Part shown: in pieces, positions 630-46,253 of the stretch
Layout of the letters: every line of letters starts with the position of its first letter
Numbering within the stretch: position 1 is the first letter of the stretch
Origin: Squalus acanthias
Lineage: Eukaryota
Length of the DNA stretch: 64,000 nt
NCBI GenBank assembly: GCA_030390025.1
Contig: CM059432.1
Location: forward strand, 36,768,001-36,832,000
Direction of reading: 5' to 3'
Position numbers and translations under genes: made by a program
Notes under the pieces: model-generated
Database searches by the model: none
Seen by the model: the letters and a program-made list of their open reading frames with translations, nothing else
Told to the model about the DNA's origin: nothing

Positions 630-766
630 CTGATGAAAGGTCATCGACCTGAAACATTAACTCTGTTTCTCTCTCCACAGATGCTGCCTGACCTGCTGAG
701 TATTTCCAGCATTTTCTGTTTTTATTTCAGATTTCCAGCATCCGCAGTATTTTGCTTTTGTGTGGG
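630..766 (+). mobile_element. Solo Penelope family A terminal fragment starting at hammerhead motif
   Basis: Matches the terminal sequence of the GIY-YIG-bearing copies at 8279-9135 and 23822-24606; 10-bp TSD taaaaagctt at 620-629 and 767-776. Confidence 0.85.
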
Positions 767-959
767 TAAAAAGCTTATTCAATGATGCTCAATCCTCACA
801 TCTACATCTCCATGCCTGAGGAGGCCTGGGTGGTGCAGCAGATGAGAACATGAGTCTCATACACTTGTCAGTGGGCCTGAGTCCAAAGCACAAACCAAAC
901 CACTAATTTGACATGAAATTGTCAGTCTTAAAGTGTGGAAAGGAGAGGCTGGAATGTTA

Positions 960-1215
960 AGTACTGCTGCAATAGGAGTTGATCCTGTCTGTGGTTAGGA
1001 TTAAGGAAAGCTGTTGTGACAGAGGAGAGAGAGCGTTATTCTGTGCTGTACCTGACTTGGTAATGGGGCAATGTAGAGAGAGCTGTACTTTGCACCTAAG
1101 CACTGTTGTACCTGATCCAGGGATGAGGCAGGTTAGAGAGGGGTGTCCTCTGTACCTAACCACTGCTGTACTTGACCTGGGAATGGGGCAGTGCAAAGGT
1201 GTGCTGTACTGGACC
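960..1215 (+). repeat. Degenerate ~60-nt tandem repeat
   Basis: About 4 units of ctgtacctga...ggg.atggggca.tgtagag...ctgtacctaa; related units at 1840-1955 and 2824-2940. Confidence 0.65.
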
Positions 1216-1544
1216 TGAAGAAAGGCTTGAAAAATTGATGGCTTTTTCATTAGACAAAGCAGGTTAAGGGAAGATTTAATGCAGGATTTCAAGATTATGA
1301 ATGGTTTTGAGAGGGTAAACATGAAAGAATGTTTCTACTGGATGACTGATCAGCAAAGAGGGCAGATTCAAGCTCATCACCAAAACAAAGTGTTAAGTTA
1401 GAAGATTTATTTTCATACCAAGTGTTAGTAGAACAGAGAGTGTTTTACAAGTGGCTACTGAAGCAGAGACTAGAAGAAGAAGAATATAATATGACATGGG
1501 GGGAAAGACAGGGAAATGGGATTAGATTAAAGAGCTCAACTTTC

Positions 1545-1651
1545 ATTTATAATAAAAACAGAAAATACTGGAAATACTCAGCAGGTCAGGCAGCATCTGT
1601 GGAGAGAGAAACAGAGTTAACGTTTCAGGTCAATGACCCTTCGTCAGAACT
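1545..1651 (-). mobile_element. Solo Penelope family A terminal fragment
   Basis: Reverse complement of the 630-766 type; TSD aactttc at 1538-1544 and 1648-1654; sits in an old CR1 3' remnant (about 1235-1540). Confidence 0.8.
1615..1651 (-). ncRNA. Minimal type-I hammerhead ribozyme motif (PLE family A)
   Basis: AGUU CUGACGA A GGGUC AUU GACCU GAAA CGU U AACU: core boxes, stem I, stem II and palindromic ACGU in place of stem III. Confidence 0.75.
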
Positions 1652-1955
1652 TTCTTTGAAGTAGTTACAGGTCATCTGACTGACACTTCTTGTTTCCCCT
1701 CCCATTTTATTCTGATTATTAAAATGTTGGTCATCTTTCATTTTTATCAGTTCTGATATAGCTGCATAGCTGCTTGTTTTCTCCAAAGATGCTGACTGAC
1801 CTACTGAGTATTGCCAGTATTTTATGAATTTGTATCAGATTTGGGACCGTATACAAGGAGGTTTGTTCTGTATCTAACCCATGGTACAGTTGACCTGTGA
1901 GTATTTGATGGGACAGTATAGAGCGTTTTACTCTGTATCTAACTCATGCTGTACA

Positions 1956-2823
1956 TTTTTTAAATTCGTTCATGGGATGTGGGCGTCGCTGGCAAGGCCA
2001 GCATTTATTGCCTATCCCTAGTTGCCTTCGAGAAGGTGGTGGTGAGCCACCTTCTTGAACCGCTGCAGTCCGTGTGGTGAAGGTACTCCCACAGTGCTGT
2101 TAGGGAGGGAGTTCCAGGATTTTGGCCCAGCGACGATGAAGGAATGGTGATATACTTCCAAGTCAGGATGGTGTGTGCCTTGGAGGAGAACTTGGAGGTA
2201 GTGGTGTTCCCATGCCAGCTGCCCTTGTCCTTCTAGGTGGTAGAGGTCGCAGGTTTGGGAGGTGCTGCAGAAGAAGCCTTGGCGGGTTGCTGCAGTGCAT
2301 CTTGAAGATGGTACACACTGCAGCCACGGTACGCCAGTGGTGGAGGGAGTGAATGTTTAAGGTGGTGGATGGGGTGCCAATCAAGCGGGCTGCTTTGTCC
2401 TGGATGATGTCGAGCTTCTTGAGTGTTATTGGAGCTGCACTCATCCAGGCAAGTGGAGAGTATTCCATCACACTCCTGACTTGTGCCTTGTAGATGGTGG
2501 AAAGGCTTTGGGGAGTCAGGAGGTGAGACACTCACCACAGAATACCCAGCCGCTGACCTGCTCTTGTTGCCACAGTATTTATGTGGCTGGTCCAGTTAAG
2601 TTTCTGGTCAATGGTGACCCCCCAAGATATTGATGGTGGGGGATTTGGTGATGGTAATGCCGTTGAATGTCAAGGGGTGGTGGTTAGACGCTCGCTTGTT
2701 GGAGATAGTCATTGCCTGGCACATGTATGACGCGAATGTTACCTGCCACTTATCAACCCAAGCCTGAATGTCGTCAAAGTCTTGCTGCATGCGGGCATGG
2801 ACTGCTTCATTATCTGAGGAGTT
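1956..2823 (-). mobile_element. CR1/L2-group LINE, 5'-truncated, A-rich tail (YKAQVRSVMEYSPLAW family)
   Basis: ORF2 C-terminal remnants (IQAWVDKWQVTF, IYKAQVRSVMEYSPLAW); same family as 43766-45094; splits the ~60-nt tandem repeat. Confidence 0.85.
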
Positions 2824-3317
2824 GCTCTGGTAGTGTTTGTTGGGGCAGTGTAGAGGGTGTATACTCTAACCTGTGCTGTACCTGCTCTGGGAGTGTTTGA
2901 TGGGTTAGTGCAGGGGGAGTCTCACTGAACGTCTAACCAATCTCACCACACGTCAGTGACACCGTTTACATTGATGACCATTATTACACAAAATGTTTAA
3001 AAAATCCAAGTTCAAGTAACAAGTCACTATTTAAATCTGCTCCTTCCGAAGGCGCAGCAAATTTTAACACCATTCAGGCGGCTGGACAGGATATAAGTTC
3101 TCTCTCAGCCTTTGGGTATCAAGGGATACGGATTAAATGCTCTAACCTATTCGCTGCCAGGACATCAAAACTCTGCAATTATTTACCTCCTTCGATGTTC
3201 CTTTCCTTCTACAATCTGCAGATTTTTAAAACCAAGTTTGCCATCATTTAATCATTACTTTTTCTCTTCTACTTATGTCAGCTTTGCTCTGTTGGTTGCA
3301 CTCTCGCCTCAGAGCCA

Positions 3318-4502
3318 GATTTCCAGAAGGCATTCGATAAGGTGCCACATAAAAGGATACTGCATAAGATAAGAGCTCACTGAGTTGGGGGTAATATATT
3401 AGCATGGATAGAGAATTGGCTAACTAACAGAAAGCAGGGAGATGGGATAAATGGGTCATTTTCCAGTTGGCAAACGGTAACTAGTGGGGTGCCACAGGGA
3501 TCGGTGCTGGGGCCCCAACTATTTACAATCTACATTAATGACTTGGATGAAGGGACCGAGTGTAATGTAGCCAAGTTTGCAGATGGTACAAAGATGGGTG
3601 GGAAAGCAAGTTGTGCAGAGGACTCAAAGAATCTGCAAAGGGATATAGACAGGCTAAGTGAGTGGGCAAACATTTGGCAGATGGAGTATAATGTGGGAAA
3701 GTGCGAGGTTATCCACTTTGGCAGGAAAAATAAAAAAAGCAAATTATTTAAATGGAGAGAGATTACAAAATGCTACAGTTCAGAGGGACCTGGGGGTCCT
3801 TGTGCATGAAACACAAAAAGTTAGCATGCAGGTACAGCAGGTAATCTAAAAGGCAAATGGAATGTTGGCCTTTATTGCAAGGGGGTTGGAATATAAAGGC
3901 AGGGAAGACCTGCTACAACTGTACAGGGTATTGGTGAGACCGCACCTTGAGTACTGCGTACAGTTTTGGTCTCCTTATTTAAGGAAGGATATACTTGCAT
4001 TGGAGGCAGTTCAGAGACGATTCACTAGGTTAATTCCAGAGATGAGGGGGTTGACTTATGAAGAAAGGTTGAGCAGGTTGGGCCTATACTCATTGGAATT
4101 TAGAAGAATGAGAGGTGATCTTATTGAAACATATAAGATACTGAGGGCGCTCGACAAGGTAGAGGCAGAGAGGATGTTTCCCCTTGTGGGGAAATCCAGA
4201 ACTCAGGGGCATAGTTTCAGAATAAAGGGTTGTCTTTTTAGAACTGAGATGAGGAGGAATTTCTTCTCTCAGAGAGTCGTAAATCTGTGGAATTCTCTGC
4301 CCCAGAGAGCCGTGGAGGCTGGGTCATTAAATACATTTAAGGTGGAGATAGACAGATTTTTGCAAGATAAGAGAGTGAAGGGTTATGGGGAGCTGGCAGG
4401 GAAGTGGCTTTGAGCCCAAGATCAGCCATGATCTTATTGAATGGCGGAGCAGGCTCGAGGGGCCAAGTGGCCTATTCCTGCTCCTATTTCTTATGTTCTT
4501 AT
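3318..4502 (+). mobile_element. CR1 LINE, 5'-truncated (RT C-terminal half plus 3' UTR)
   Basis: PQGSVLGP, FAD(G)TK and RPHLEYCVQFWSP motifs with frameshifts and stops; ttcttatg tail. Confidence 0.92.
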
Positions 4503-4504
4503 AT

Positions 4505-4850
4505 TGTAGGTTCAAGCTCACTACGGACTGGAGCGCGTAATCCAGGCTGACACTTCATTGCAGTACTGAGGGAGCGCTGTACTGTCAGAGGTGCAGTATT
4601 TCAGAAGAGACGTTAAACCGAGGCCCCATCTGTCCCATTCAGTTTGATGTAAAAAATACTATGCTCTATTCGAGGAAGAGCAGGGTGTTCTCCAGTGTGT
4701 AGATTAGAAATTGTCCCTCAAAACCAACACCACCAAAAACAGATGATCTGGTCACTTATCTTATTTGCCTTTTGTAGGACCTTGCCGTTTGCAAATTGCA
4801 AAACAACAGTCTCTGTAGTTTAGAAGTATTCAATTGATTGTAAAGTGCAA
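4505..4850 (+). mobile_element. Deu-domain SINE (SacSINE1/AmnSINE1-like), degenerate
   Basis: cagtactgagggagcgctgtactgtcagaggtgc...gagacgttaaaccgaggcccc shared with the full copy at 63348-63792. Confidence 0.75.
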
Positions 4851-4932
4851 GCTCGCGGTAACATGGCTGGTGTCCTGCAATGTGGCCCTGCACCTACATA
4901 ACTCATTTAAAAAAATTGAGCTGACAACTTAC

Positions 4933-5100
4933 TGGCTGACGTGAGGATGGATGAAGCAAGTTTTTGACAGACTTTCTTTGCAGAGTCCTGGGGCCTCTGC
5001 TTCACTTGGGACAATAACTTCAAAGACTTCAATTTCTGAGGTGGTTTCTGATATTCTTCCTGTTTGAGTAAAGCTTCAAAGTGCACATGAAGAGGCGTGT
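4933..5100 (-). CDS. KANSL1L: KANSL1-family internal exon F
   Basis: 168 nt, phase 1-1, ttttcag|AC...GCCA|gtaagt. DTPLHVHFEALLK matches KANSL1L DVPLHFHFETLLK; DSAKKVCQKLASSILTSA matches KANSL1 DSARKDRHKLVSSFLTTA. Confidence 0.9.
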
Positions 5101-5199
5101 CTGAAAACAAAACAAGTCAACCTCATCAACATGCTTACCCCTTACATACACTACTGGTAACTAAGAACCTTATTCATTACACTCAACGTATCAACAAGG

Positions 5200-5655
5200 T
5201 ACAGTAGCCAAGTGGCTGTGGTACTAGACGAGCAAACATGAGTCCAAAATCCACCAAGGCAAGGTGGGAAAACGAACTCGATAAATCTGGCCATTTGTAG
5301 GCTGGCAACAGACTGCCATAAAAACCCAACTGGTTGACAAATATCCTTCAGGGAAGGGAGTCTTCCAGCCCCATTTGGTCTGGTCTGCACAAGACATCAG
5401 TCCCACACTACGTGGCTGACTCCTAATGTCACCAGGGCAACTAGGGATGGGCAATAAATGCTGCTTTGCCAGCAATGTCTCCTCTAATTTTTTTTGGGCC
5501 ACGTGGCCCCTTCAAAATTCTGCGCATGTGCGGTTTTTCGATTTAAAAGCCGGTGAGCTGGCTGCGCAGGACCTCCAGAGCGCTGCGCAGCCACGTGGCT
5601 TAAAGGGAACATTGCTTGCCAGTATTGCCCACCTCCCGAACAAATGAAAAAAAAA
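5200..5655 (+). mobile_element. MetaSINE-like SINE with tail of the YKAQVRS LINE
   Basis: Core ccttcagggaagg...tggtctg...cagtcccacac; tail ggcaactagggatgggcaataaatg...cccacctccc..aaaa matches the LINE end at 45020-45093; interrupted by a MITE. Confidence 0.65.
5473..5614. mobile_element. hAT-type MITE, 142 bp
   Basis: 15-bp imperfect TIRs caatgtctcctctaa / ttaaagggaacattg; 8-bp TSD tttgccag (5465-5472) and cttgccag (5615-5622). Confidence 0.8.
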
Positions 5656-6179
5656 GGTGGGATGCAGTTAACATTTCCAACCACTGATGAAACCAGAAGG
5701 TTGCATTCAGTGTGATGTACAACCTTCCTATTTATTTTCAATTTCATATTATTTTACCCAGCTCAATGAAGTTTGCTCTGACAGTCTGTCTCATTGGGAT
5801 ACTGGTCACTCTCTGGTAAAGAGGCCCCTCCAATTGGCCATTCTTCAATTACAAACTAAGACTGTGACTTCTGCAGGAGATTTGACTGTTCACAAGATAG
5901 ATATGGATGAGGGAGGTTATTAGTCTCATCATAGCCAACTCATCCAAAATAAAAGTACACTCCCTCCCCCTTAAAGATGGTGGCGGGGGGGGGAAGGTGG
6001 TAGTAGGAAAAAAAATACGGAATAAAAAAAAGGGCAGAAAATAGAAAGACTAAATAGTGGGAACATACACGTTTAATTTAATGCCAAATACATGGAACAT
6101 TCAAGAGAAAGGGCATTAAAAACCCATGAAGGCTAACAGCAATTAGTTTTAAATATAATAGTGACATTGAAACACCAAC

Positions 6180-6345
6180 CTTGAGGGAGCGACAGTATGG
6201 AGTGGTAGCAGGGCTCCATTATAGCCACACGTTCCTGTGGAGGCATGCTGGGCTGATCCATAGTCTGCATCAGGGTTTTGGAGCCACACAAAATGCACAC
6301 GTTGGGCCAGTCACAGCTACACTTGACACTGAGTGGGCGCTGGGC
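6180..6345 (-). CDS. KANSL1L: KANSL1-family internal exon E
   Basis: 166 nt, ttttgcag|GCC...CAAG|gttggt. AQRPLSVKCSCDWPNVCILCGS...ERVAIMEPCYHSILSLPQ is similar to KANSL1 GCDVNPSCALCGS...ERLSQLDSCVHPVLAFPD. Confidence 0.9.
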
Positions 6346-6477
6346 CTGCAAAAAGGGACCACATGATGTAAGTGCTTCTGTACTTTCGTATACACTGTAG
6401 CTGCTTCAGATACGAGGAACAAATTAACTACTAATGTCAACAGGAATAAACTTTGAAACGTTATCATGATCTTTCCT

Positions 6478-6880
6478 TTCTTTCTCTCCTCTCCTCCTGA
6501 AAGTGCTGACTTGTGTTGGGATCTGTTTTCATAGCCAGTGAGCACCCTCTGGTACATCACCAACACAGCCATTTTTCAGGTGCGAGCCTAGACAGCAAGT
6601 GTCGAAAAGCTGTTTGAGCATTTGAGATCATAGCCAAGCCTAATACTATACAATGTGCACACATACACATATTCCAGCAGGGATTGGTGGATAGTGGTCA
6701 GGCTTGGGGATTCTGCAATTTTCCCCTCTCAAACACACAGGCCAAATATAGCCTCCCTACTATTGCTGTCTTAATTGAGATCGTCAAATTTAGTGCCAAT
6801 AGGTGAACACATCTGGGATCTTCCTAGTCTCATTCTACTGGACTGGAGAGAATGCTAGCATTAGTTTGGTCTCTTTATGC
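6478..6880 (-). mobile_element. LF-SINE-like element (degenerate, near full length)
   Basis: Minus strand carries ctgtctaggctcgcacc...ggctgt...gtaccagagggtgct...agtcagcactttcaggaggagaggagagaaa, matching the recalled LF-SINE 3' half. Confidence 0.7.
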
Positions 6881-6959
6881 TGTTGCTTTTCTACAATCCA
6901 GTTGGTTGAGAGTGGGCAGGACATTTCTCTCAGCCAATTAACTCACCACACATGCTCTT

Positions 6960-7388
6960 CTCAAGTTTTCCCTTCCCTTTGGGAAGGAGCTGACTCATGG
7001 TTGGGTAAAATTCCATGCATACCAGCAGCCCTCTGGTACCTCATTCAAGTGACCATTCTTCAAGTATGAATCTATATAGTGGGAGGCTATTCGATCACTG
7101 CTGGGGTGAGGGATGAGGAAGGGCACGGCAGCTATGCCAGCTGAGACCAATCTCACCCACCCACCCATAGTTTACAGCAGAAGTCACTATCGCGCAATCA
7201 GGAGCGAGAACTTCAGCTGCCTTTTCTGTTCTGTGGAGTGGGAACACTGACGCCAATTGCAGCCCGACACCACCATCCTGGCTGTGATCAGCTAACTCAG
7301 CACAGACCAGGGGCTGAACCTTGGACTTTCTGGGCTACAAGTTTCACTACAGTACCACGTAATGCACTCAGCTACTGAAGCACTGGGA
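6960..7388 (-). mobile_element. LF-SINE-like element (near full length)
   Basis: Minus strand cctggtctgtgctgagttagctgatc...gctgcaattggc...ctcgctcctgattgc...tcgaatagcct...tgaagaatggtcactt...ggtaccagagggctgc. Confidence 0.8.
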
Positions 7389-7447
7389 GAATTTACAGCA
7401 GCCACAACCTATGCAATATTCGATAACTGTCAGCGAGAGTCACGTAC

Positions 7448-7652
7448 CTTTCTGCCAAGGTAACATGCCAGGCTAGATCTGACCAGCCTCCTCTTCCTGT
7501 ACCTCCGGACAGGACGAACTCTGGCGGCAACACAGCTGTTGTCCGGTGGTGATGGAGGGACGGTAAGACCATCCAGTCGCTGTCTTTTACTCAAGATCTC
7601 CTCTGTGTCTGAGCTGTCTAGTGAGCTGTTGTCCAAAGGACTGGAATGCAAA
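7448..7652 (-). CDS. KANSL1L: KANSL1-family internal exon D (WDR5-binding WIN motif)
   Basis: 205 nt, ttacag|T...AGAAAG|gtacgt. DSSDTEEILSKRQRL...DNSCVAARVRPVRRYRKRRLVR matches KANSL1 DSSDAEEQLHKKQRL...[22 protein letters not shown]. Confidence 0.92.
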
Positions 7653-7848
7653 CTGTAATATTAAAAAAGGAGATAAAAGCCAGTGAGGCAAATGATGGGA
7701 ACATTCCAAATCTTTTTTAAAAGAAATGTTATTTACACAATTAAGTCGATAACAAATCCTAAATGCTGAGTGGAAACAGTAGTGCAAAACACTACTACGT
7801 CCTTTTTTATCTCAGCCACAAGGACCTGTGCAGCATAAAGCAACTCAC

Positions 7849-7979
7849 CTGTTCAGCAGTCCGTTTAGTTGCCTTGGCGGCGTGCAGACTTTAGACAGTA
7901 GTGAAGAGCTTGAGGGGGAGCTACAGGAAGGGCTGGAGGGGCAGATGAGATTTCCCAGAGACTGTGTAAGGCGAGAACT
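7849..7979 (-). CDS. KANSL1L: KANSL1-family internal exon C
   Basis: 131 nt, tttcag|AGT...AACAG|gtgagt. SSRLTQSLGNLICP...LSKVCTPPRQLNGLLN resembles KANSL1L SAQLTEIINSLIAP...SSKSCSHKCLANGIY; phase consistent with neighbours. Confidence 0.87.
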
Positions 7980-8278
7980 CTGAAAGAGAAAATAAACATG
8001 TTGTCTTGGCTGCCTGTTGTTGACTAATAACAACCAACCCGCTCACCCGGATTTTTTTTTAATTGCAAAGAAATGAGAAGAGATTTTCACTCTGTATCAC
8101 TTTAAAGGACTTAGATTAATGGTTTTGCTTAAACAGCACATCACATTCTGGCTCGGAGGAGCTACACAGCCTTGCCAGTGAGCATATCATTGAGTGACAC
8201 CTTCAGTCAGCTAATCAGATACAGGCACACAAGCATCACAGGTAGAGACACGGCAGCACACAGCCTGCTCACACTCTT

Positions 8279-9135
8279 ACGATAGCAAAATACTGCGGAT
8301 GCTGGAAATCTGAAATAACAACAGAAAACGCTGGAAAAACTCAGCAGGCCAGGCAACATCCGTGGAGAGAGAAACAGAGTTAACGTTTCAGGTCGAAACC
8401 CTTCGTCGGAACTGAGAGAGCAAGAAATAAACAGATAAAAATGCAAGGGGGAGGCTGGGGGGAGGAATAAAAGAACAAAAGGGATGATCACGAAGCAGTC
8501 TCCTCTACATTGGGGAGACCAAACGCAGATTGGGTGACCGCTTTGCGGAACACCTCCGTTCAGTCCGGAAGGGTGACCCTGAGCTTCCGGTCGCTTGTCA
8601 TTTTAATTCACCCCTCCACGCTCACTCAGACCTCACCGTCCTCGGCCTCTTGCATTGTTCCACGGAAGCGCAGCGTAAGCTCCAGGAACAGCACCTCATC
8701 TTCCGTTTAGGCACTTTAAAGCCTTCCGGACTCAATATCGAGTTCAACAATTTCAGATCATAACCTCGGCCCCTACCACATATGTATACATTTTATCCAC
8801 TCTTTTGGTCCGTGCCTTTTTCCTTTTTTTCTCTCTCTCCCCCCACGGCAGCTGTCTATGATTCTGCCAGCATTTCACACCTTACCTTTTGTTTCTCAAC
8901 CTGTCCCATTACCATCTCATCTTGCCTTGAGCATCTCTCAATGTCTCTGCTCACTAAAGACCATCCCTTTTGTTCTTTTATTCCTCCCCCCAGCCTCCCC
9001 CTTGCATTTTTATCTGTTTATTTCTTGCTCTCTCAGTTCCGATGAAGGGTTTCGACCTGAAACGTTAACTCTCTTTCTCTCTCCACGGATGTTGCCTGGC
9101 CTGCTGAGTTTTTCCAGCGTTTTCTGTTGTTATTT
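8279..9135 (+). mobile_element. Penelope-like element family A with inverted terminal copy and GIY-YIG remnant
   Basis: LYIGETKRRLGDRFAEHLRSVRK...HFNS (about 8500-8763); near-perfect ~175-bp inverted arms at about 8312-8486 and 8962-9136; 14-bp TSD ctgctcacactctt at 8265-8278 and 9136-9149. Confidence 0.92.
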
Positions 9136-10796
9136 CTGCTCACACTCTTGGCTGGGAGATGATTCTTTTGCAACGGGTTGGTCAAGGAACATAGAGAATT
9201 AAAAACATTTTAGTAAATTAAAATGAAAAACGAGCAACTGTAGGGATTTCACTTCGCCAGCAAAGAAAAAGTTTAACACACACAGAGCCTGAGGTTCAGC
9301 TCGCTTGGAAGTTAAATCTAGAAAGTAGTGGAATTACAGTGGGTCAAGGTAGAGTCTGGAAGAGAAAGGCAGGTCTGGAATTGTGAAGGGCCTCCATCCA
9401 ATACTTAACCTGTCATTTCTCTCTCTCATACTGGCGAATCTGCTGCATATTTTCAGCAGTTTTTGTGTTTTCTTTCAGTATTCACATTTCATTTAAAAGA
9501 GACTGTGCATTTCCCATTGCTGCCACAAGAGGTCACTTTGAAGACTGAAGTCCTTGGGATAAACACTTTAAAAACAGCCAATTAAATAGAAGCCTGGCAC
9601 AAACTTTGCCCCACCTCCCCAAATCTTCACCAACTCTCTGAAAGGGAACAATTTTGGATAAGATATGGTTCCACATATTGTTACACCCATCTGTCACCTC
9701 ACCTTGCCAATTGTTCTGTAACATATGATTCTAAGGACAGGTATGAGATTTCCCGATATTGCTTCTCTCTCCAGGTCGAGGGGCTAGCACCTGCGCAACA
9801 CCAACCGAACAAAGCGACGGAGAACATGTTTTGTGTGGGCAATCCAACACACCAGTGCTTTGTTAGTTGTATCATCAGAACATAAGAAATAAGAGCAGGA
9901 GTAGGCCATATGGCCCCTCGAGCCTGCTCCGCCATTCACTGGCTGATGATCGACCACAACTCCACTTTCCCGCCCCATCTCCATATCCCTTGATTCCCCT
10001 AGAGTCCAAAAATCTATCTATCTCAGCCTTGAATATACTCAAAGACTCAGCATTCACAGCTCTCTGGGGCAGGGAATTCCAAAGATTCACAACCCTCTGA
10101 GTGAAGAAATTCCTCCTCATCTCAGTCTTAAATGGCTTACCCCTTATCCTGAGTCTATGCCCCCTAGTTCTAGACACTCCAGCCAGGGGAAACAACCTCT
10201 CAGCATCTACCCTGTCAATCCCCTTCAGAATCTTGTGTGTTTCAATGAGATCATCTCTCAATCTTCTAAACTCCAGAAAGTAGAGGCCCATTCTACACAA
10301 TCTCTCATCATAGGACAGCCCTCTCATCCCAGGAATCAATCTAGTGAACCTTCGTTGCACCGCCTCCAAGGCAAGTATATCCTTCCTTAGATAAGGAGAC
10401 TAAAACTGTGCACAGTACTCCAGGTGTGGTCTCACCAAGGCCCTGTATAATTGTAGCAAGATCTTCTTACTCTTATACTCCAACCCCCTTGCAATAAAGG
10501 CCAACATGCCATTTGCCTTCCTTATTGCTTGCTGTACCTGCATGCTAGCTTCCTGTGTTTCTTGCACGAGAACACCCAAATCTCTCTGAACACCAACATT
10601 TGAAAGTTTCTCACCATTTAAAAAATATTCTGTTTTTCTATTCTTCCTACCAAAGTGAATAACCTCACATTTCCCTACATCTGCCACCTTACTGCCCCCT
10701 CACTTAGTCTGTCTATATCCCTTTGCAGACTCTTTGTGTTCTCCTCACAGCTTACTGTCCCACCTAGCTTTGTATCATCAGCAAACTCGGATACAT

Positions 10797-11206
10797 AGAA
10801 ACATAGAAACATAGAATCTAGGAGCAGGAGTAGGCCATTCGGCCCGTCGAGCCTGCTCCACCATTCAATACGATCATGGCTGATCATCCAAATCCAGTAG
10901 CCTGTCCCTGCTTTAATCCCCACAGTACACATATCCCACCCTACCCCCGTAACCAATTCCCCCTAACATATCCCATCCTATCCCCACATATTTAATACCC
11001 CCCTAACACTAAGGGTCAATTTATCATAGCCAAATCAACCTAACCCGCACATTTTTGGACTGTGGGAGGAAACCGGAGCACCCGGAGGAAACCCACGCAG
11101 ACACGGGGAGAATGTGCAAACTCCACACAGACAGTCACTCGAGGTCAGATTCGAACCCGGGTCCCTGGCGCTGTGAGGCACCAGTGCTAACCACTATGCC
11201 ACCGTG
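10797..11206 (-). mobile_element. V-SINE (HE1-like): tRNA head, V domain, CR1-derived tail
   Basis: A box TGGCATAGTGG (11191-11201), B box GGTTCGAATC (11148-11157), V core tggagtttgcacattctccccgtgtctgcgtgggtttcctccggg, CR1-type tail ending (tttctatg)n. Confidence 0.88.
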
Positions 11207-11216
11207 TACAGCCAGT

Positions 11217-11316
11217 GTCCGACGAAGGGTTTCGACCTGAAACGTTAACTCTGTTTCTCTCTCCACGGATGTTGCCTGGCCTGCTGAGTTTTTCCAGCGT
11301 TTTCTGTTGTTATTTC
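11217..11316 (+). mobile_element. Penelope family A terminal fragment with CCGACGA hammerhead variant
   Basis: Near-identical to 9038-9136; ends at the same gttgttatttc terminus. Confidence 0.85.
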
Positions 11317-14300
11317 GGATACATTACACTCGGTCCCTTCATCTAGGTCATTAATATAGATTGTAAATAGCTGAGGCCCCAACACTGACCTTTGCGGCAC
11401 CCCACCAGTTACAGCCTGCAAACCTAAAAAAGATCCGTTTATCCCTACTCTCTGTTTTCTGTCCATTAACCAATCCTCTATTCATGCTACTATATTACCT
11501 CCAACCCCATGAGCCCTAATCGTGTGTAATAACCTTTTATGTGGCACCTTATCGAATGCCTTTTGGAAATCCAAATATACTACATCCACTGGTTCCCCTT
11601 TATCTACCCTGCTAGTTACATCCTCAAAAAACTCTAATAAATTTGTCAAACACGATTTCCCTTTCATAAAACCATGTTGACTCTGCCTAATCATGTTACG
11701 ATTTTCTAAGTGACTTGATACCACTTCCTCAACAATGGATTCCAGCATTTTCCCGACGACTGATGTCAGGCTAACTGGCCTGTAGTTCCCTGTTTTTTCT
11801 CTCCCTCCTTTCTTGAATAGCGGTGTTACATTTGCAACTTTCCAATCCGCTGGGACCATTCCAGAATCAAGGGAATTTTGGAAGATCAAAACCAATGCAT
11901 CCACTATCTCTTCAGCCACCTCTTTTAGAACCCTAGGATGCAGGCCGTCAGGGCCAGGGGATGTGTCGGCTTTTAGTCCCATTCGTTTCTCTAGTACTTT
12001 TTCTCTACTTATATTAATTACGTTAAGTTCCTCACCCTCATTAGACCCTTAGTTCCCCACCATTTTTGGTATGCTTTTTGTGTCTTCTACTGTGAAGACA
12101 GATACAAAATATTTGTTTAACGTTTCTGCCATTTCCTTATTCCCCATAATAATTTCTCCTGTCTCAGCCTCTAAGGAATCAACATTTACTTTTGCTACTC
12201 TTTTCCTTTTTACATACTTGTAGAAACTCTTACAATCTAATTTTATATTTCTTGCTAGTTTTCTCTCATATTCTATTTTTTCCCTTTTTATCAATTTTTT
12301 GGTCAACCTTTGCTGGTTTCTTAAACTCTCCCAATCCTCAGGTTTACTATTATTCTTTGCAACATTATAAGCTTCTTCTTTCAATCTAATGCTATCCTTA
12401 ACTTCTTTAGTTAGCTACGGTTGGATCACTTTCCCCGTGGACTTTTTGTTTCTCAATGGAAAGTATTTTTGTTGAGAGTTATGAAATATTTCTTTAATGC
12501 TAGCCACTGCTTATCTACCGCCATACCTTTTAATCTATTTTTCCAAGCTATCTTAACCAACTCGCCGCTCATACCTATGTAATTGGCTTTATTTAAGTTT
12601 AAGACTCTAGTTTTGGACTTAGGCAAGTCACTCTCAAAATTAATGTGAAATTCTATCATATTATGATCATTCTGCCCCAGAGGATCCTTTACTATGAGAT
12701 TGCTAATTAACCCTGTCTCATTACACAATACAAGATCTAAAATAGCCTGTTCCCTGGTTGGTTCCATGACATATTGTTCTAGGAAACTGTCCCGAATGCA
12801 TTCCATGAACTCGTCTTCCAGACTACCTTTGCCAATTTGATTTGTCCAGTCTATATGAAGATTAAAGTCCCCCAAGATTATTGCATTACCTTTGTTGCAA
12901 TCTCCTACTATTTCTTGATTAATATTCTGTCCAACGGTATAGCTACTGTTAGGGGGCCTATATACTGCTCCCACCAGTGTTTTCTGCCCCTTGTTATTCC
13001 TTATCCCCACCCATACTGATTCTACTTCCTAATCTTCCGAGCCGAGATCCATTCTCGCGACTGTCCTTATGTCATCCTTTATCAGGCTCCTCCCCCTCCT
13101 TTTCCATTCTGCCTGTCTTTTCGAAACGTCAAGTACCCTGGAACATTTAGTTCCCAACCATGTCTCTGTAATGGCTATTAGATCAAACCCATTTATCTCT
13201 ATTTGTGCCACTAGTTCGTCTATCTTGTTACGAATGCTTCGTGCATTCAGATAATGAGCCTTTAATTTAAATTTTTTACCATTATTCCCTGCTTTGACCT
13301 TATTCTCTGCTGCACTGCAACCATTAAACTCTTTATTCCTTCCTGTCACACTGTTTATTTTTACCCAAATCGCTACACTGCTCTATTGCCTTGACCTTTC
13401 TCTTTAGATTTCTAAATATTCCCTCACCTGACCCCTTCCCCCGCCTTTTTTAGTTTAAAGCCCTATCTGCAGCCCTAGTTATTTGATTCGCCAGGATGCT
13501 GGTCCCAGCCCTGTTTAAGTGGAGCCTGTCCTGACGGAACAGCTCCCTCTTTCTCTAGTACTGGTGCCAGTGCCCCATGAATTGAAACCCCTTTTTCCCA
13601 CACCACTCTTTGAGCCATGCATTTAACTCTCTGATCTGCTTGACCCTATGCCAATTTGCACGTGGCTCAGGTAGTAATCCAGATATTATTACCCTTGTGG
13701 TTCTGCTTATTAATTTAGACCCTAGCTCCTCAAACTCCCTCAGCAGAACCTCATTCTTAGTTCTACCTATGTCCTTGGTTCCTACATGGACCACGACAAC
13801 TTCATCGTCCTACATCGTCCCCCTCCCACTCCAAGTTCTTCTCCAGCCATGAGGAGATATACTTAACCCTGGCAACGGGCAGGCAACACAGCCTTCGGGA
13901 CTCTCTTTTGCGGCTGCAGAGAACAGTATCTATCCCCCTGACTATTCTGTCCCCTACTACTACCACATTCCTTCATTCTCCCCCAACTTGGATTGCCCCC
14001 TGTACCACAATGCTGTGGTCAGTTTGCCCATCCTCCCTGCAGTCCATTTCCTCATCCATACAGGTAGAAAGTACCTCGTACCTGTTGGACAAGGTCCAGG
14101 GCTGAGGCTCCTCCATCACTAAGTATCTCCATCCATCAATAAGTGTTAGAGAGACACTGAATCAGCATGAAGACTTTCTACCGGCCATTTCAAAGCACTC
14201 AAGTTCACAAAGTACAAGTGAAAAAAGTGTTGCTGCTGGGTTCATACAGCATATTGGCAACAATATGTTCCATGAAAAGCAAACCTACTAAAAAAAAAAC

Positions 14301-15086
14301 GATACACAAAAGCTCCTTTGCAATATCCTCCAGTTCCAAATCTTATCTCAAACCCTCTTCTATATCTGTACTACTGTGCGCTTCCCAGTTCCTCCCTCTT
14401 CCCCAGCCACTGGCAGGGCCTTTAGCTATCACAGTCGGTCTCTCCTGCAGCTCTTTCTCTAAACCCCTCCGGCCTCTCTCCCCACCTACAAAAACCATCT
14501 CGCAGCCTACTCTTTCGACTACGCCTTTGATCACCTGTTCTAACCTTCTCCTGATTCCTGCTTGGTATCTGATCAGCCCCCTTCCCCCGTATCCTGCCTT
14601 GAGCTCCTGAAGGTGCTATGCAGGAGAGATTTTCCTCTTGAACATTACTCAGGTGCAGTGAAGTGGAAAATGGGGCAGAGGCCCGTTACATCAGGCCTGC
14701 ACCACCATCGTGCTGCCCCAGATTTCCCCACTGGACATAACTGTATGCTGTTGTAAGGAGGTGGGAGAAGCATTATTGGCCTTCCTCTTCTTTTTCCTGT
14801 GCAGCTAAGCATTGGGCCTCCCAGTGAAGGAGCATGGCCCTTGAATTCCCCACAAACTGGAAAGTCTGCAGGATTGTGCCGTAGGCTGAAGACATGAAGA
14901 CAGGCATTCAACTTTATTTATTTTTTAAGGTAACCCCCTCTCGCCCTGGCCTCAGGACAATTTGAAGTAGTCAGAAGACCCCAATCTTAGTGGACAAGTG
15001 CGTTGTGCCTAAAATGCGCCCTTGTAAGTGCCAGCGTTGTTATTACTGTTGGGTGTTTCCCACAGGTTAAATATGCTAACATGATT

Positions 15087-15525
15087 TAAAAAAAAAAAAA
15101 ATTCTCAGGATGTGGGCATCACTAGGAAGGCTGGCATCTGCTGCGCATCCCTAGTTTCCCTGAGAAGGTGGTGGTGGGCCGCCTTCTTGAACCGCTGCAG
15201 TCCGTGTTGTGAAGATGCTTAGTTTGACACAACTAAGTGGCTTGGTTTGCTCGGCCACTCCAGAGGGCAGTCAAGAGACAACTACTTTGGCGTAGGACTG
15301 GAGTCACATATAGGCCTGACCGGGTAAGGACGGCAGGTTTCCTTCCCTAAAGGACATTAGTGATTCAGTTGGGTTTTTACAACAATCCAAGAGCTTGATG
15401 GTCACTTTTACTGATACCAGCATTTTATTACCATTTAAAAAAAAACTGCATTCAAGTTCTCAAACTGTCACGGTGGGATTTGAACTCACATTCTCTGGAT
15501 TATTAAACCACTACACTACTGTACC
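15087..15525 (-). mobile_element. MetaSINE-like SINE
   Basis: Minus strand cctttagggaaggaaacctgccgtccttacccggtcaggcctatatgtgactccagtcc core; tail shared with the YKAQVRS LINE; poly-T end. Confidence 0.75.
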
Positions 15526-15683
15526 CTGCACGGATCAATATACTTTACAGAAATCTGACAGACACTGTCAGTGCCATAATAATCTGACAGACCAATTAAA
15601 ATTGCACTAAAGCACAGAATTTTTGTTTTTAAAACTTCAGAAACATTTTGGACTACCGATACTTCAAACGAGTGATCACACAC

Positions 15684-15893
15684 CTGTTTATCAATGTTCC
15701 GTAAAAGGAGAGATGGGCTGCAGGGTGAGAGTTCACATTTGTTATTGGCGATAGGGGCCTTCACTTCGGCAGAAGAGGAGTTGGAGTATGTCTCAGGGCC
15801 CTGCGAGCTGACTGCCGACGATGTCGTTACTAAGCGGCACTGGTGCTTCATCAGATCTTCTGGCAACTGAGCATCACCAAGGACAACCGGGCC
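15684..15893 (-). CDS. KANSL1L: KANSL1-family internal exon B
   Basis: 210 nt, phase 0-0, ttctcag|GGC...AAACAG|gtgtgt. GPVVLGDAQLPEDLMK...ELSPCSPSLLLRNIDKQ matches recalled KANSL1L GIVVLEECQLPKDILKK...EMSPSSPTLLLRNIEKQ and joins in frame to exon A (ANK|GPVVLG). Confidence 0.9.
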
Positions 15894-16261
15894 CTGAGAA
15901 CAGAAAGTCAAATCAATCAAATCTCTCCAATTAAGTCTCCTTGCAGAGAGTGCCATAAATCTGCTGGGACACAACAGAGTACACAGCAATCAAGCGATCT
16001 TTTTAACCATCATGAGTACTCAATTATCTTTCCAGCTTCTCAAATGTCCACAAAAATGTATTTGTAATTTTGTCCCTGCAACTTTCACTCCCTTTTCTTG
16101 TTGGTTCCCTGGGCACGAGCAGACATCCAGCACCTTGGCCACATGCCCCCATCCTATCCTAGCTCATCCACCCCAAAGTCCTAGCCATCATAGCACAATT
16201 GTTTTTTTAAAAAATGATTCTGGATTTTTGGCTCCAGTCTCTTACCTAGATGTCCCCATCC

Positions 16262-17022
16262 ACATAGAGTCATAACGGCACAGGAGGCGGCCATTTGGCC
16301 CATCGAGTCCGTGCCGGCTCTCTGTAGAGCAATCCAGTCGGTCACATTCCCCCGCTCTATCCCCGTAGCCCTGCAAGTTTATTTCCCTCAAGTGCCTATC
16401 CAGTCTCCCCTTGAAAACATTGAGTGTTTCCGCTTCAACCACTTCCGTCAGCAGCGAGTTCCAGGTCCTCACCACTCGCTGCGTAAAAAAGTTTTTCCTC
16501 ATATCCCCACTATATCTCTTGCCCAAAACCTTAAATTTGTGTCCCCTAGTCCTTGTACCATCAACTAGTGGGAACAGCCTTTCCCTGTATAACCTATCCA
16601 AACCCGTCATAATCTTATACACCTCTATCAAATCACCCCTCAACCTCCTTTGCTCCAATGAAAACAAATCCAGCTTCTCCAACCTGTCCTTGTAGCTAAG
16701 ATCCCCCATCCCCAGAACCATTCTGGTAATTCTCCTCTGCACCCGCTCAAGGGCCTTCCTGAAGTGTGGTGACCAGAACTGGACACAATACTCCAGTTGT
16801 GGCATAACCAGCGCTTTATAAAGGTTCAGCATAACTTCCCTACTTTTGTACTCAATACCTCTATTTATGAAGCCCAAGATCCCATATGGTTTGTTAACCA
16901 CTCTCTCAATATGTCCTGCCACCTTCAGGGACCTATGCACATTAACTCCCAGGTCCCTCTGTCCCTGCACACTCTTCAAAACTGTGCCATTAAGTGTATA
17001 TTGCCTCTTCCTGTTCCTTCTG
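16262..17022 (-). mobile_element. CR1 LINE 3' fragment
   Basis: Open frame QRDLGV...MPQLEYCVQFWSP...FFTQRVVRTWNSL; same subfamily as 24684-27850. Confidence 0.92.
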
Positions 17023-17429
17023 TTGATCATGTTGATCGCATCTGGTATGAAAAGAAACTTCCTGCCATCAGTCCTAAATTTGCCTTTTGCCAGTTTCAAC
17101 CTTAACACTCTTGTCCAACTGTCACCAGTTAACATGAAGTAGTGCCCCTGGATTGAAGTTTTCTACATCTTTTACTATCTTAAATATCGCCACAGGTCAC
17201 CATCTTTCAAGACTGAAAAGCCAAAATTTCTGAGGTCCTTACTTATGACTTAGTTCTCTGACGCCAAGGATTAATCTTTGTCACTCTTCTGCACCATTTC
17301 CAGAGCTTCAATGTCTCTCATGTGTCTCGGTGTCTAAAACTGGACACTGACTCAAGGTGTAGTCTGACCAGAGCACTGCACAGCATACTCTGCCACTGTC
17401 TAATTTATATTTAAAATTAACTCAAAGTA

Positions 17430-17750
17430 AATTGAGTGTTGTTGCTGAGCTGTGGAGACCAGAACTTCCCAAAGTCAATTGTTGAATTGTGTTGAGTCAC
17501 CTGGCCTCAGCTGTAAGGATTCCTGCTCCTGATCATGAATGAGTGAACCCTGCTGGGAAAGGAATAGTATTGGGCAGAATTACAATTCCCCCACCCGCCT
17601 CATGGTCAAATATTCCGATGACCCGCGTTGTGCATATGAAGAACGGTTGCTTGGGAGGAGAACTGGGTTTGGCTGGGGAGGATTTAGGTAGAGACTATGG
17701 AACTGTATCCAAGGGAGTCGGTACCTTCAGGAGATGAATGGAGAAAACTG
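17430..17750 (+). mobile_element. LF-SINE-like element (internally deleted)
   Basis: ttcctgctcctgatc...ccctgctgggaaag...catatgaagaacgg...gagtcggtaccttcaggaga...gagaaaa. Confidence 0.65.
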
Positions 17751-18505
17751 GAGTGATACAACACAGCTAATGCCGCACAAAGGAACAGAAACGCAAATAC
17801 TTTAGAGTTTAGATGCAGAGAAAACCCCACATAACAGTGATGAAAATTGAAGGCTGACAACCAGTTAACAAATAATTAAAATGCAATGGCTCTACTGACG
17901 TCATGAGCTGCAACTGAAAGCCTACACTCGCCCTCTTGGCCCACATCTTTGAGACATTTACAAATAGCAGCACAGCATTAAGACTGAATTAATGCCACAG
18001 CCACTTAATGTCTTCCATCTTACTGGAAGCAGGATCGCAGTCAGTGATAGACTCTCGAGCCTCTCTGGTGTACCACACATTGCGCCAAGGACTGGTAGGA
18101 CAAGGGCCTGCACTCAATTCCAAACTTGCTCCTGCCATTACAGGCAGTGAACAAAGCCCAGATGTTGTCCTTGGGTTGATGTACTGTACCGGCACCAACA
18201 CATGATTGGAAAATCACTCTCATACAGTGTGACACCAATGTCACTGGTGGAGGAGGGAGAAATCACACATATTGTGTAGCGGTACCAACATACTTTTGGA
18301 AAAATCACACTTGTAGGGTAACACAAATGCTATTGGAGAAGGGTGGAAATAAAAAAAAACACACTTCTATTGTGCACTGCCACCAACATGCTACAGTATA
18401 ATCCCATTTAATGTGGCGTACTGGCACCAACACACTATTGGGGAAAGAAAAATCACACATAGCATGTTAGCACCAACACTCCGACTGCAAAACGGGTCAC
18501 ACTTA

Positions 18506-18607
18506 TGGAATAAAAACAGAAAATGCTGGAGATACTCAGCAGGTCAGGCAGCATCTGTGAAGAGAGAAACAGTTAACGTTTCAGGTCGATGACCTTTCGT
18601 CAGAACT
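18506..18607 (-). mobile_element. Solo Penelope family A terminal fragment
   Basis: Same sequence as 1545-1651; short TSD actta at 18501-18505 and 18605-18609. Confidence 0.8.
18571..18607 (-). ncRNA. Minimal type-I hammerhead ribozyme motif, intact (PLE family A)
   Basis: AGUU CUGACGA A AGGUC AUC GACCU GAAA CGU U AACU with perfect stems I and II. Confidence 0.8.
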
Positions 18608-22120: not shown

Positions 22121-23821
22121 GAAAAATCCTCCAAACATGGGTGCAGCAGACCAAATGAATTTAAATAAAGACAAATACTTGTTCAAGTTATTGCATAACC
22201 TTGCTCATTAAGAGAGGGGCGATTTTATTTCAAGTTTCATGACACGACTACAAAATAAAAAGTTGATTCAAGAATTGTTACATCTGTTGTGTCCTGGATG
22301 AACGCAGAAAAAAAAAACAGTTTGATTCCAACTCTGCACTAAGATTGCTGTTCTCAGCCAGTGCAGCGATTGGGGCACTACAGTTGACAAGAGTTCCCTG
22401 GGGACACAGCACATCCAAGCTTGATCCTGCTCTCACATGACAATCACACAAACACACTTTCTAACAGGGTCACTGGGTGATGATTAGGAACATGACTCCT
22501 GGCTATTTTTTTTCGAGCTCTCTCCAGCCAGTTGCAGCATCTTCTATTACTGTTCCAGCTAACATAACCAAACTCTCCACAGACCAGGGATTCAAAATAG
22601 GACCTTACTGGTCTGGATAGTTCATTTACTCAGTACCAAAAGGGGTGGCTAATTGCTTATTCATCTTATCTTTGTGTAAATTGCCAATGATTTAAGCACC
22701 AAGAATGGATTTAAGAACTTTGCCAGTCTTTTCAATGAACTGCAAGAAAGTGGCATGTGACACAACTAACCTGTTCAAAGCCGCTTGAGCAGCTGGTATT
22801 GGGTAAGGGCACATGTCCTATGAAGCAGGATTTTGCTATTCCCATCCACTGTCTCAACCCAACACCACCGGCAAGAGCTCTATGATGGGAACTGACGGCG
22901 ATAGTCTTCAGGATGCAATATGATGTATCACTGCACTTCCTGACGTAATACATTCCAAACAGCTGCTGCACTACACATGGTCTAAAAGAGTTAAACTCCT
23001 TTCGCTCTTCCCTCATTCTTTGGCTGCAGTTTGAATGATTTATCAGAAATGCAAACGTGGGGACAATCCCTTTAAAACTTAAATACTCCGGCAACCAATG
23101 TGCAGGATCCACAACTCACAGTGGAAGACATCTCATATCTGCACTTCCACCTCAGTTCCCTTGATAGAGACGAAATATGGACTATTTTATAATGCATTTT
23201 TGTTAGGTGGGAGAAGGAAGTAACTTTGTACATAGAAGCCCAGTATTCTTCCTTTTTGTTTGGCCCCTCTTTACGGAAGGAAATCTGCCATCCTTACCCA
23301 TTCATAGAATCATAGAATGATACAGCACAGAAGGCCGTTCGGCCCATCGTGCCTGTGCTGGCACTTTGGTAGAGCTATCCAATTAATGCCATTCCCCATC
23401 TCTTTCCCCGTAGCCCTGTAAATTTTTTTCCTTCAATTATTTATCCAATTCCCTTTTCAAAGTTACTATTGAATCTGCTTCCACCACCCTTTCAGGCAGT
23501 GCATTTCAGATCACAACAACACGCTGTGTAAAAAAATGTTTCCTCATGTCGCCTCTGGTTCTTTTGCCAATCATCTTAAATCTGTGTCCTCTGGTTACCG
23601 ATCCTTTTACCACCAGAAACAGTTTCTCTTTATTTACTCTATCAAAACCATTCATGATTTTGAACACCTCTATCAAATCCCCTCTTAACCTTCTCTGCTC
23701 TAATGAGAACAATCTCAGCTTCTCCAGTCTTTCCACATAACTGAAGACCCTCATCCCTGGTACCATTCTAGTAAATTTAAGCCAGCACAGATTTGTTGAA
23801 GGCAAATCGTATTTAACTAAT

Positions 23822-24606
23822 ACAATAGCAAAATACTGCGGATGCTGGAAATCTGAAATAACAACAGAAAATGCTGGAAACACTCAGCAGGTCAGGCAGC
23901 ATTGAGGAGAGAGAAACAGAGTTAACGTATCGAGTCGGGGACCCTTCGTCAGAACTGGAAAAGGTTAGAGAAGAGAGATTTTTAAGCAGGGGCAGGGAGG
24001 AGGGGAAGAACAAAGGGAAGGTCTGTGATAGGATGGAAGGCAGGAGAGATTAAAAGACAAAAGGGATGATGGTGCAAGGCAAAAGGAGATGGTAATGGAA
24101 CAAGTTAAGAAACAAAAGATGACTCTAGATGAGGTGTGAATGATGAAGGCAGTAACATTAACAGCTACCATGAGAGAAAACAAGAGAAAAAATATATAAA
24201 GAAATACAGGGGCCGAGGTTATGGTCTGAAATTGTTGAGCTCGATGTTGAGTCCAGAAGGTTGTAAAGTGCCTAATAGAAAGATGAGGTGCTGTTCCTCG
24301 AGCTTACGTTGAGCTTCGTTGGAACAATGTAAGAGGCCGAGAACGGAGAGATCAGAGTGGGAGTGGAGCAGAGAATTAAAGTGACAGGCGACCGGAAGCT
24401 CGGGGTCATGCTTGCGGACTGAACGGAGGTGTTCCGCAAAGCGGTCACCCAATCTGCGTTTGGTTTCCCCAATGTAGAGGAGACCGCATCGTGAGCAGCG
24501 AATACAGTATACTAAATTGTAAGAAGTCCAAGTAAATCGCTGTTTCACTTGGAAGGGGTGTTTGGGGCCCTGGACGGTGGGAAGGGAGGAGGTAAAAGGG
24601 CAGGTG
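23822..24606 (-). mobile_element. Penelope-like element family A, 5'-truncated, GIY-YIG endonuclease domain
   Basis: ORF 24219-24548 NLVYCIRCSRCGLLYIGETKRRLGDRFAEH...GLN; terminal region with mutated hammerhead (GAUA) at 23920-23956. Confidence 0.93.
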
Positions 24607-41889: not shown

Positions 41890-42095
41890 ATTGAGAGGTC
41901 GCACAACACCAGGTTATAGTCCAACAGTTTTATTTGAAATCACAAGCTTTCGGAGCTATCGATTTGCTCCTTCCTCAGGTGAAGATAGCTCCGAAAGCTT
42001 GTGATTTCAAATAAAACTGTTGGACTATAACCTGGTGTTGTGCGACCTCTCAATTTTGTCCACCCCAGTCCAACACCGGCATCTCCGCATCATGA
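41890..42095. mobile_element. Penelope family B palindromic mini-insertion
   Basis: 73-bp perfect inverted repeat (41888-41960 / 41984-42056); 14-bp TSD cctctatttatgaa at 41876-41889 and 42096-42109. Confidence 0.9.
41940..41982 (-). ncRNA. Minimal type-I hammerhead ribozyme motif, intact (PLE family B)
   Basis: UCAC CUGAGGA A GGAGC AAAUCGAUA GCUCC GAAA GCU U GUGA. Confidence 0.78.
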
Positions 42096-45783: not shown

Positions 45784-46253
45784 TAGAGAGAGAGGACATA
45801 TTAAGAGGTTTAGCATCTTTGAAAGTAGATAAATCAGGCCCGGATGAAATGTATCCCAGGCTGTTGAGAGGTAAGGGAGGAAATAGCAGAGGCTCTGGCC
45901 ATCATTTTCCAATCATCTCTGGCTACAGGCGTGGACAGAGGACAGCCAACGTTGTGCCATTGTTTAAAAAGGGAGAAAGGGATAGACTGAATAATTACAG
46001 GCCGGTCAGCCTAACCTCAGTGGTGGGAATATTATTGGAAAAAATTCTGAGGGTCAGTATAAATTGTCATTTAGAAAGTCACGTATTAATCAAGGACAGT
46101 CAGCATGGATTTGTTAAGGGAAGGTCGTGTCTGACTAACATGACTGAAATTTTTGAGGACATAACGAGGAGGGTCGATGAGGGTAGTGCATTTGATGTAG
46201 TCTACATGGATTTTAGCAAGGCCTTTAACAAGGTCCCACATGGAGGGTTGGTC

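Follow-up and report, generated by a model that had tools for sequence, protein, structure and literature searches.

The window analysed here, a 64,000-nucleotide (nt) stretch of Squalus acanthias DNA (GenBank assembly GCA_030390025.1, contig CM059432.1, positions 36,768,001 to 36,832,000), contains two unrelated repeat families, A and B, each with a minimal type I hammerhead ribozyme. Both are Penelope-like elements (PLEs), and short inserts of them, among them four family-A solo insertions in the window, begin beside the ribozyme core. These short inserts are probably copies of the first 100-135 bases of the PLE transcription unit, made by internal priming and run-off at the capped 5' end of the mRNA. 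Their left edge likely marks the PLE mRNA start, which would mean that the RNA is copied uncut to its cap. A fixed 5' edge, an excess of G outside it, the spacing of a TATA-like box and a ribozyme cut site without a peak of ends fit a transcription start best, a cause that was not named in the original prediction, where either a discrete retrozyme-like mini-element mobilised by PLE enzymes or a ribozyme fold that ends reverse transcription had been proposed.

Clustering of 5' ends beside the hammerhead

Positions are given relative to the C of CUGANGA (position 0), on which scale the family-A ribozyme is predicted to cut after +28. All four family-A solos were found as originally described, with homology to long copies ending beside the ribozyme core at -5 to 0. 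With microhomology allowed, the junction of the solo at 630-766 lies at -2 to 0 and that of the solo at 1548-1651 (first placed at 1545) at -4 to 0, and each has a target-site duplication (TSD) of its own, matching at 10/10 bases (0 of 400 null draws as good) and 9/10 bases (3 of 400) respectively. A TSD had also been claimed for the solo at 18506-18607 (junction -4 to -1) and did not stand, its 5 exact bases being indistinguishable from chance (66 of 400 null draws). The fourth solo (11213-11316, first placed at 11217; junction about -5) shares, as predicted, a 10-bp TSD (10/10; 10787-10796 and 11315-11324) with an element that we take to be a short interspersed element (SINE), and its core CCGACGA is a subfamily trait which also occurs in the long copy at 8278-9136. 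The junction of the family-B palindrome at 41888-42095 likewise falls at the 5' edge of the ribozyme, where one arm ends at -6 and the partner arm begins inside stem II.

The 5' ends of family-A arms were sampled on contigs C1-C15 of the 3.71-Gb genome, whose repeats resemble those of a cartilaginous fish; the window itself lies on C8. For the random part, 10-kb stretches were taken at 140 fixed positions across these contigs (1.4 Mb in total). The second part took 30 copies from C1, those listed first among 16,155 exact matches to a tail motif that is neutral to 5' ends. Arm endpoints were called by comparison with natural long copies. A total of 120 arms were found, of which 34 were excluded (16 old arms with less than 85% identity, 13 from one old insertion amplified inside another repeat and five broken by nested insertions) and 86 were kept. 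A separate set of 30 solo loci, biased towards whole solos, was excluded from the endpoint statistics; some of these loci are present in the nearest-neighbour and promoter sets described below.

The clustering of solo and arm 5' ends near the hammerhead is genuine. Twenty-four of the 86 kept arms end at -7 to +2, twelve at direct junctions and twelve at inversion junctions, giving 0.052 ends per nt at risk compared to 0.004 in the flanks (ratio 12.5, p ~2e-15). The random part alone has 12 of 59 arms ending in this interval (ratio 7.6, p 1e-6). The earlier claim that the ends are not randomly placed was therefore borne out, as the histogram shows a peak at -7 to +2 rather than the flat or exponential shape that had been named beforehand as its refutation. 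A weaker excess was observed at +3 to +20 (12 ends, ~0.011 per nt). No peak was found at the ribozyme cut site, with a single end in 702 nt at risk (+24 to +33), and self-cleavage had rightly been judged unsuitable as the cause of the boundary. Genome-wide, 32,655 core matches were found, and about 24 of the 100 matches listed end at -7 to 0 by hand count. Direct, TSD-flanked solos in the sample have the same edge; five direct solos occur in the 1.4 Mb, and simple scaling gives about 13,000 for the whole genome.

Three further observations were made among these loci. The amplified old insertion is two-armed (arms at ~+12 and ~+50) and recurs with common flanks inside another repeat (L039, L040, L049, L054, L076, L134 and L168). 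In five copies (L044, L051, L115, L138 and L173) the hammerhead is interrupted at +24 to +27, directly after GAAA, by other insertions, possibly reflecting a target preference of a small DNA element. Two solos (L240 and L245) lie directly after the microsatellite tail of a long interspersed element (LINE) or SINE, and no TSD was found for them.

Exact edges, the extra G and promoter-like sequence

The family-B edge at -7 is sharp to a single base and lies 3 nt ahead of stem I. Genome-wide, matches to one family-B anchor number 2,360 with an end at -6, 2,824 at -7 and 549 at -8, many of those at -6 being the partner arm of a -7 event, and about 41 of the 100 family-B cores listed end at -10 to 0 with the mode at -7 (hand count). 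Family-B long copies have C at -8. Among 100 non-C matches listed, the base outside the -7 edge is G in 71, A in 12 and T in 17, four of the last being mutated long copies; these junction-base figures, as for family A below, are hand tallies of 100 matches listed. The share of G at -7 (71/100) exceeds that at -6 (15/100; Fisher 5e-16) and -8 (39/100; Fisher 9e-6), with 28-31% expected in either family. A script check of 30 family-B loci gave G in 23, A in five and T in two. Out of 24 G junctions examined by hand, nine have a G that comes from neither the partner arm nor the target and one is unclear, and at least three palindrome loci among the 100 matches listed carry an extra base on both arms. 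Six independent insertions (L278, L293, L296, L297, L302 and L303) have TG before the edge, and in about 16 of the 100 matches listed at -8 the bases before it are GAC; these bases may represent an additional untemplated A or first bases copied again after run-off.

The family-A edge at -4 is the first base of stem I. Among the 100 matches listed, the base outside it is G in 56, A in 21 and T in 23 (eight being mutated long copies), compared to 37/100 G at -3 (Fisher 0.011), and about 33 of the 62 direct-looking -4 junctions in that list have G. At 23 loci examined, the non-G direct junctions mostly show 1-3 nt of target microhomology whereas the G junctions have their G in microhomology, in filler or without an adjacent TSD. 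The extra G, which long copies do not have, is specific to the edge, strongly in family B and moderately in family A. At full-length LINE-1 junctions an extra G reflects the cap, according to the accessible text of PMC11702581.

Both edges fall on an initiator-like A in a YYANWYY context, the motif of initiators. A TATA-like box was found to start at -29 to -32 in 49 of 57 family-A upstream regions and at -30 to -33 in 18 of 21 family-B upstream regions, and in most family-B subfamilies the edge lies exactly 30 nt below TATATAT. Family-A long copies additionally have a pyrimidine tract and a CAG ending at -3, and this speaks in favour of taking the edge as a 3' splice site, with the template being a spliced RNA that has a tiny or foreign first exon. 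The Drosophila virilis Penelope intron also has its end at the 5' side of helix I, according to the available part of PMC4209133. The family-B edge, however, is sharper yet has no AG, so that splicing cannot be the common cause, the TSDs adjoin the junction and leave no room for an exon, and no common upstream exon was seen among the 100 family-A -4 matches listed. We give splicing hardly any credence, the least of the explanations considered. In contigs from four sequencing runs of uncertain type, which cannot show transcription starts and were not used as evidence, no GT..AG joint recurs at the family-A acceptor. Two more acceptor-like motifs of a pyrimidine tract plus AG occur inside the family-A solo sequence at +30 to +50 and +85 to +100 (660-680 and 715-730 in the window), one of them directly before an in-frame ATG, and solos scattered through host introns could serve as cryptic splice acceptors.

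The parent elements are ordinary PLEs and, by the architecture of their open reading frame (ORF) and a linker motif, are assigned to the endonuclease-bearing (EN+) Neptune/Nematis type. One locus (L248, 2890-5901) has a 1,004-codon frame without a stop which runs, in a partial tandem, from the hammerhead and tail through the reverse transcriptase (RT) to a GIY-YIG domain; its Pfam matches to RVT_1 (E 2.5e-5) and GIY-YIG (E 4e-4) are weak, both below the curated cut-offs. A CX4CxxC linker precedes the endonuclease in family A and in a family-B fragment (L253), and a CX2-5CxxC linker is tied to Neptune/Nematis in the accessible sections of PMC8557442. The partial tandem with pseudo-long terminal repeats (pLTRs), the optional tail, the inverted arm and the TSD (10-17 bp) are all present. 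The hammerhead is predicted from sequence: patterns for the core and for stems I and II were found in 103 copies of family A and 76 of family B, of which 78 and 62 respectively have a fully paired stem I; an Rfam scan gave no hammerhead match. As the long frame extends from the hammerhead to GIY-YIG, the solo sequence corresponds to the front part of the transcription unit and recurs where the unit before it ends. In family A the 3' ends are fixed at +95-100 or +131, in family B at +80-87 or +122.

Proposed copying route and competing explanations

In the proposed route, RNA polymerase II would start 4-7 nt ahead of the hammerhead core. The PLE protein would then nick both strands, about 10-17 bp apart to judge by the TSDs, and prime internally. 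Priming in the first unit, just downstream of the hammerhead, would leave 100-135 nt to the cap, where the RT would run off and add a base opposite the cap, and the extra G may be this copied cap. Trimming and microhomology joining would blur the junction by a few bases. A single arm would give a solo, two arms primed from both nicks would give a head-to-head palindrome joined at or near the cDNA ends, and priming one unit further downstream would give the long, randomly truncated copies. The accessible text of PMC11167929 describes a Poseidon element whose RT starts internally, at two sites by which the tail is defined, and extends both strands; it works on uncleaved RNA and requires the first 172 nt of the ORF. 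The two 3'-end positions of each family match these two priming sites, and by analogy solos would be without ORF sequence that the protein needs; having lost this downstream sequence and the TATA box, they would be dead ends. As the ends are not piled at the cut site, the template appears to have been uncut.

Several points weigh against this reading. An RT may add C at any blunt template end, and the extra G consequently supports run-off more firmly than it supports a cap. Fourteen of the 24 family-B G junctions examined could draw their G from the partner arm, and G at -5 is missing from all four window solos. In family A the edge is soft, with 2,036 matches at -3, 1,650 at -4 and 1,282 at -5 (the last counted with only G or T allowed upstream), and 84 of the 100 matches listed at -5 are preceded by T. 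Most of these -5 matches are either mutated long copies or palindrome centres with a T before them, and we infer that the softness arises from such mutated copies, microhomology trimming and snap-back on TCAG-TT-CTGA. The initiator is a degenerate motif, and the TTAAAAA box of family A departs from a perfect TATA. Both full units found (L248 and L105) begin upstream of the edge, showing that longer templates exist too. The cited biochemistry comes from a Poseidon element whereas the present elements are Neptune-type. In D. virilis, transcription starts about 120 nt ahead of the hammerhead (46 + 75 nt) in the available portions of PMC2377424 and PMC4209133, and an edge at the hammerhead is thus not a universal geometry.

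The template end could instead be made after transcription, by a 5'-to-3' exonuclease halted at the fold or at bound PLE protein, or the fold itself could end reverse transcription as in the second part of the original prediction. The family-A edge does coincide with the first base of stem I, which is paired in 78/103 family-A and 62/76 family-B copies, this edge is spread over several bases, and terminal transferase activity could add an extra base at any template end. The family-B edge is nevertheless sharp, 3 nt before stem I and in most subfamilies 30 nt below TATATAT, and single-strand folds are no more stable than those of shuffled sequences (z -1.1 to +0.8). An RT moving 3' to 5' would pause ahead of a hairpin and not past it. 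The fold as an RT stop fits poorly, since it predicts neither the extra G nor the TATA spacing, and a post-transcriptional end as a whole is unlikely, although it is the strongest of the competing explanations.

Local palindromes (TCAG-TT-CTGA, stems I and II) might also produce the peak on their own through snap-back or microhomology joining of inverted arms. Many -5 junctions are indeed perfect palindrome centres, and PLE palindromes are put down to self-priming in the accessible text of PMC3846280. Half of the peak ends (12/24) are, however, direct junctions with flanking DNA, and fold-back explains neither the extra G nor the TATA spacing. We regard local palindromes as a very improbable sole cause; they probably shape junctions without setting the edge.

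A different proposal treats the solos as a non-autonomous element that propagates itself, similar to a retrozyme or a SINE, with PLE proteins mobilising it in trans. Their discrete length, their own TSDs and their high number (five direct solos per 1.4 Mb) would suit such an element, and for non-LTR retrozymes an origin from pLTRs is reported (bioRxiv 10.64898/2026.07.22.740005, accessible text). The question of a separate lineage was addressed by a nearest-neighbour test on 147 cores (78 short, 69 long; partly targeted copies; five ambiguous and five satellite-embedded cores left out). Short copies have a short nearest neighbour at a rate of 0.533 compared to 0.524 with shuffled labels, 43% of the shuffles being as high, at the limited resolution of 98 nt, and the main subfamily variants all occur in both classes. 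At that resolution the short copies do not form a lineage of their own as retrozymes would. The same edge was also observed on arms joined to distant partners in two-armed insertions (L232, L238 and L241). The window solos are single and dispersed and have no upstream TATA-like box, and their ends lie away from the cut site, whereas the unit ends of a retrozyme would be set by self-cleavage. No tandem of at least two consecutive hammerheads was found among the window solos or the clustered regions checked. The discrete retrozyme-like mini-element of the original prediction is therefore not supported, within the limited resolution of these cores nothing points to master solos, and a self-propagating element is improbable; the accompanying claim that PLE enzymes make the inserts was judged right.

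Clustered copies at ~7.0-7.1 Mb on C1 were considered as retrozyme tandems and rejected. Three of the regions (L246, L247 and L249, ~6.99-7.13 Mb) are satellite arrays with a ~35-bp unit in which PLE fragments repeat at 1.2-1.7 kb spacing, and two further clustered regions are a partial-tandem PLE and an inverted pair.

Beyond the origin of the solos, we lean with some reservation towards a wider interpretation in which the Neptune-type PLE hammerhead is the first structure of a capped mRNA. Every master transcript would carry a priming site ~100-130 nt off the cap, and the resulting strong-stop-like cDNA would have been integrated in tens of thousands of events, as one arm or as two arms placed cap to cap, with the genome recording the start to one base. 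A sense, uncut and capped RNA would template both arms, and the ribozyme would be a possible self-decapping switch rather than a cutter that matures the template.

Copies in the window and comparison with known systems

The annotated copies are listed in Table 1. The first 98 nt of the solo at 11213-11316 are identical to the arm at 8278-8488, 3 kb away. Their subfamily is rare (4 of the 147 sampled cores, three of them in the window), which may indicate local hopping. The pair formed by this solo and the presumed SINE (10787-11324) interrupts a LINE copy within its single TSD, and could have arisen in one event, with a different RNA primed at each of its two nicks, or through a later SINE insertion at the TSD edge.

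Table 1. PLE copies and associated features annotated in the window (strand "." for two-armed insertions).
Feature	Position	Strand	Details
Family-A solo with tail	630..766	+	hammerhead core 630-658; PLE homology to ~761; TSD 620-629 / 767-776
Family-A solo, no tail	1548..1651	-	core from 1647; AGTT 1651-1648; TSD 1648-1657 / 1538-1547
Family-A two-armed insertion	8278..9136	.	tailed arm 8278-8488 (-, from -79); tail-less arm 8486-9136 (+, from -553); 14-bp TSD
Presumed SINE, tRNA-headed, LINE-type microsatellite tail	10797..11207	-	usual 5' start short by ~5 nt; TSD common with solo 11213
Family-A solo, no tail	11213..11316	+	core CCGACGA at 11219; head-to-head with SINE in one 10-bp TSD
Family-A solo, no tail	18506..18607	-	core from 18603; candidate TSD of 5 exact bases
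Family-A long copy, 5'-truncated	23821..24605	-	GIY-YIG coding end, promoter region, hammerhead, tail
Predicted family-A core promoter	23956..23985	-	TTAAAAA 23985-23979; initiator-like A (putative +1) 23956; putative function
Family-B truncated copy	27300..27554	-	
Family-B palindromic insertion	41888..42095	.	14-bp TSD 41876-41889 / 42096-42109; minus arm to -6; tail on plus arm
Family-B long copy	45312..45784	+	TATATAT 45626-45632; initiator-like A (putative +1) 45656; core from 45663; putative promoter
Family-B long copy	48789..49288	-	

PLEs are the closest mobile relatives of telomerase. In the accessible text of PMC3846280 the choice between a sense and an antisense template is left open and palindromes are explained by self-priming, and the function of the ribozyme is called unclear in that of PMC8557442. 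The fixed edge and the extra G on solos and on both palindrome arms argue for a template that is sense, capped and uncleaved, with priming at two nicks. Should the ribozyme lie at the start of the mRNA, its cleavage would remove the cap and ~33 nt, suggesting a regulatory role, and the transcription-start reading names two exact bases (-4 in family A, -7 in family B) for capped starts. For annotation, such short repeats would be filed as PLE by-products, neither as SINEs nor as retrozymes. Solo pLTRs and single hammerheads are already published (PMC3846280, PMC4209133), and a search of the open-access literature found no paper with the transcription-start explanation.

The statements on published systems that follow refer to the accessible text of the sources. 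The present families resemble the EN+ PLEs Neptune and Nematis (PMC8557442, PMC3846280) in their ORF with RT and C-terminal GIY-YIG, the CX4CxxC linker, the partial tandem with pLTR, the optional 30-40 nt tail, the inverted 5' arm, the TSDs, the solo pLTRs and the TATA and initiator motifs in the pLTR. In those accounts solo pLTRs come from recombination or deletion and palindromes from self-priming on an antisense template, whereas here the solos have TSDs, a fixed 5' edge and an extra G, which suggests that a sense template was copied as far as its end. With the Anolis Poseidon element PAc (PMC11167929), a member of another PLE clade, the present families share a pair of fixed priming sites that bound the tail, extension of both strands, a hammerhead overlapping the ORF start and uncleaved RNA as substrate; neither a transcription start nor 5' ends of short genomic copies are mapped for PAc in that text.

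The minimal type I hammerheads of metazoan PLE pLTRs (PMC4209133) likewise have a short stem I and a palindromic stem III and occur as thousands of scattered single motifs, but these singles are there only called probably related to truncated PLEs, with no fixed 5' edge reported. Non-LTR retrozymes (bioRxiv 10.64898/2026.07.22.740005) are similarly non-coding, with a type I hammerhead, a PLE-pLTR origin and dispersed monomers, yet they are defined by tandem units with at least two ribozymes and by circular RNA, whereas the present inserts are single or head-to-head and begin ~30 nt ahead of the cut site. The 5' junctions of LINE-1 copies and processed pseudogenes (PMC11702581) share the extra G at cap-complete junctions. 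LINE-1 primes at the 3' end of its RNA and its cap-complete copies are the longest; here the cap-complete copies are the shortest. Finally, as a short cDNA reaching from a fixed priming site to the cap, the inserts resemble retroviral minus-strand strong-stop DNA, which is transferred and not integrated.

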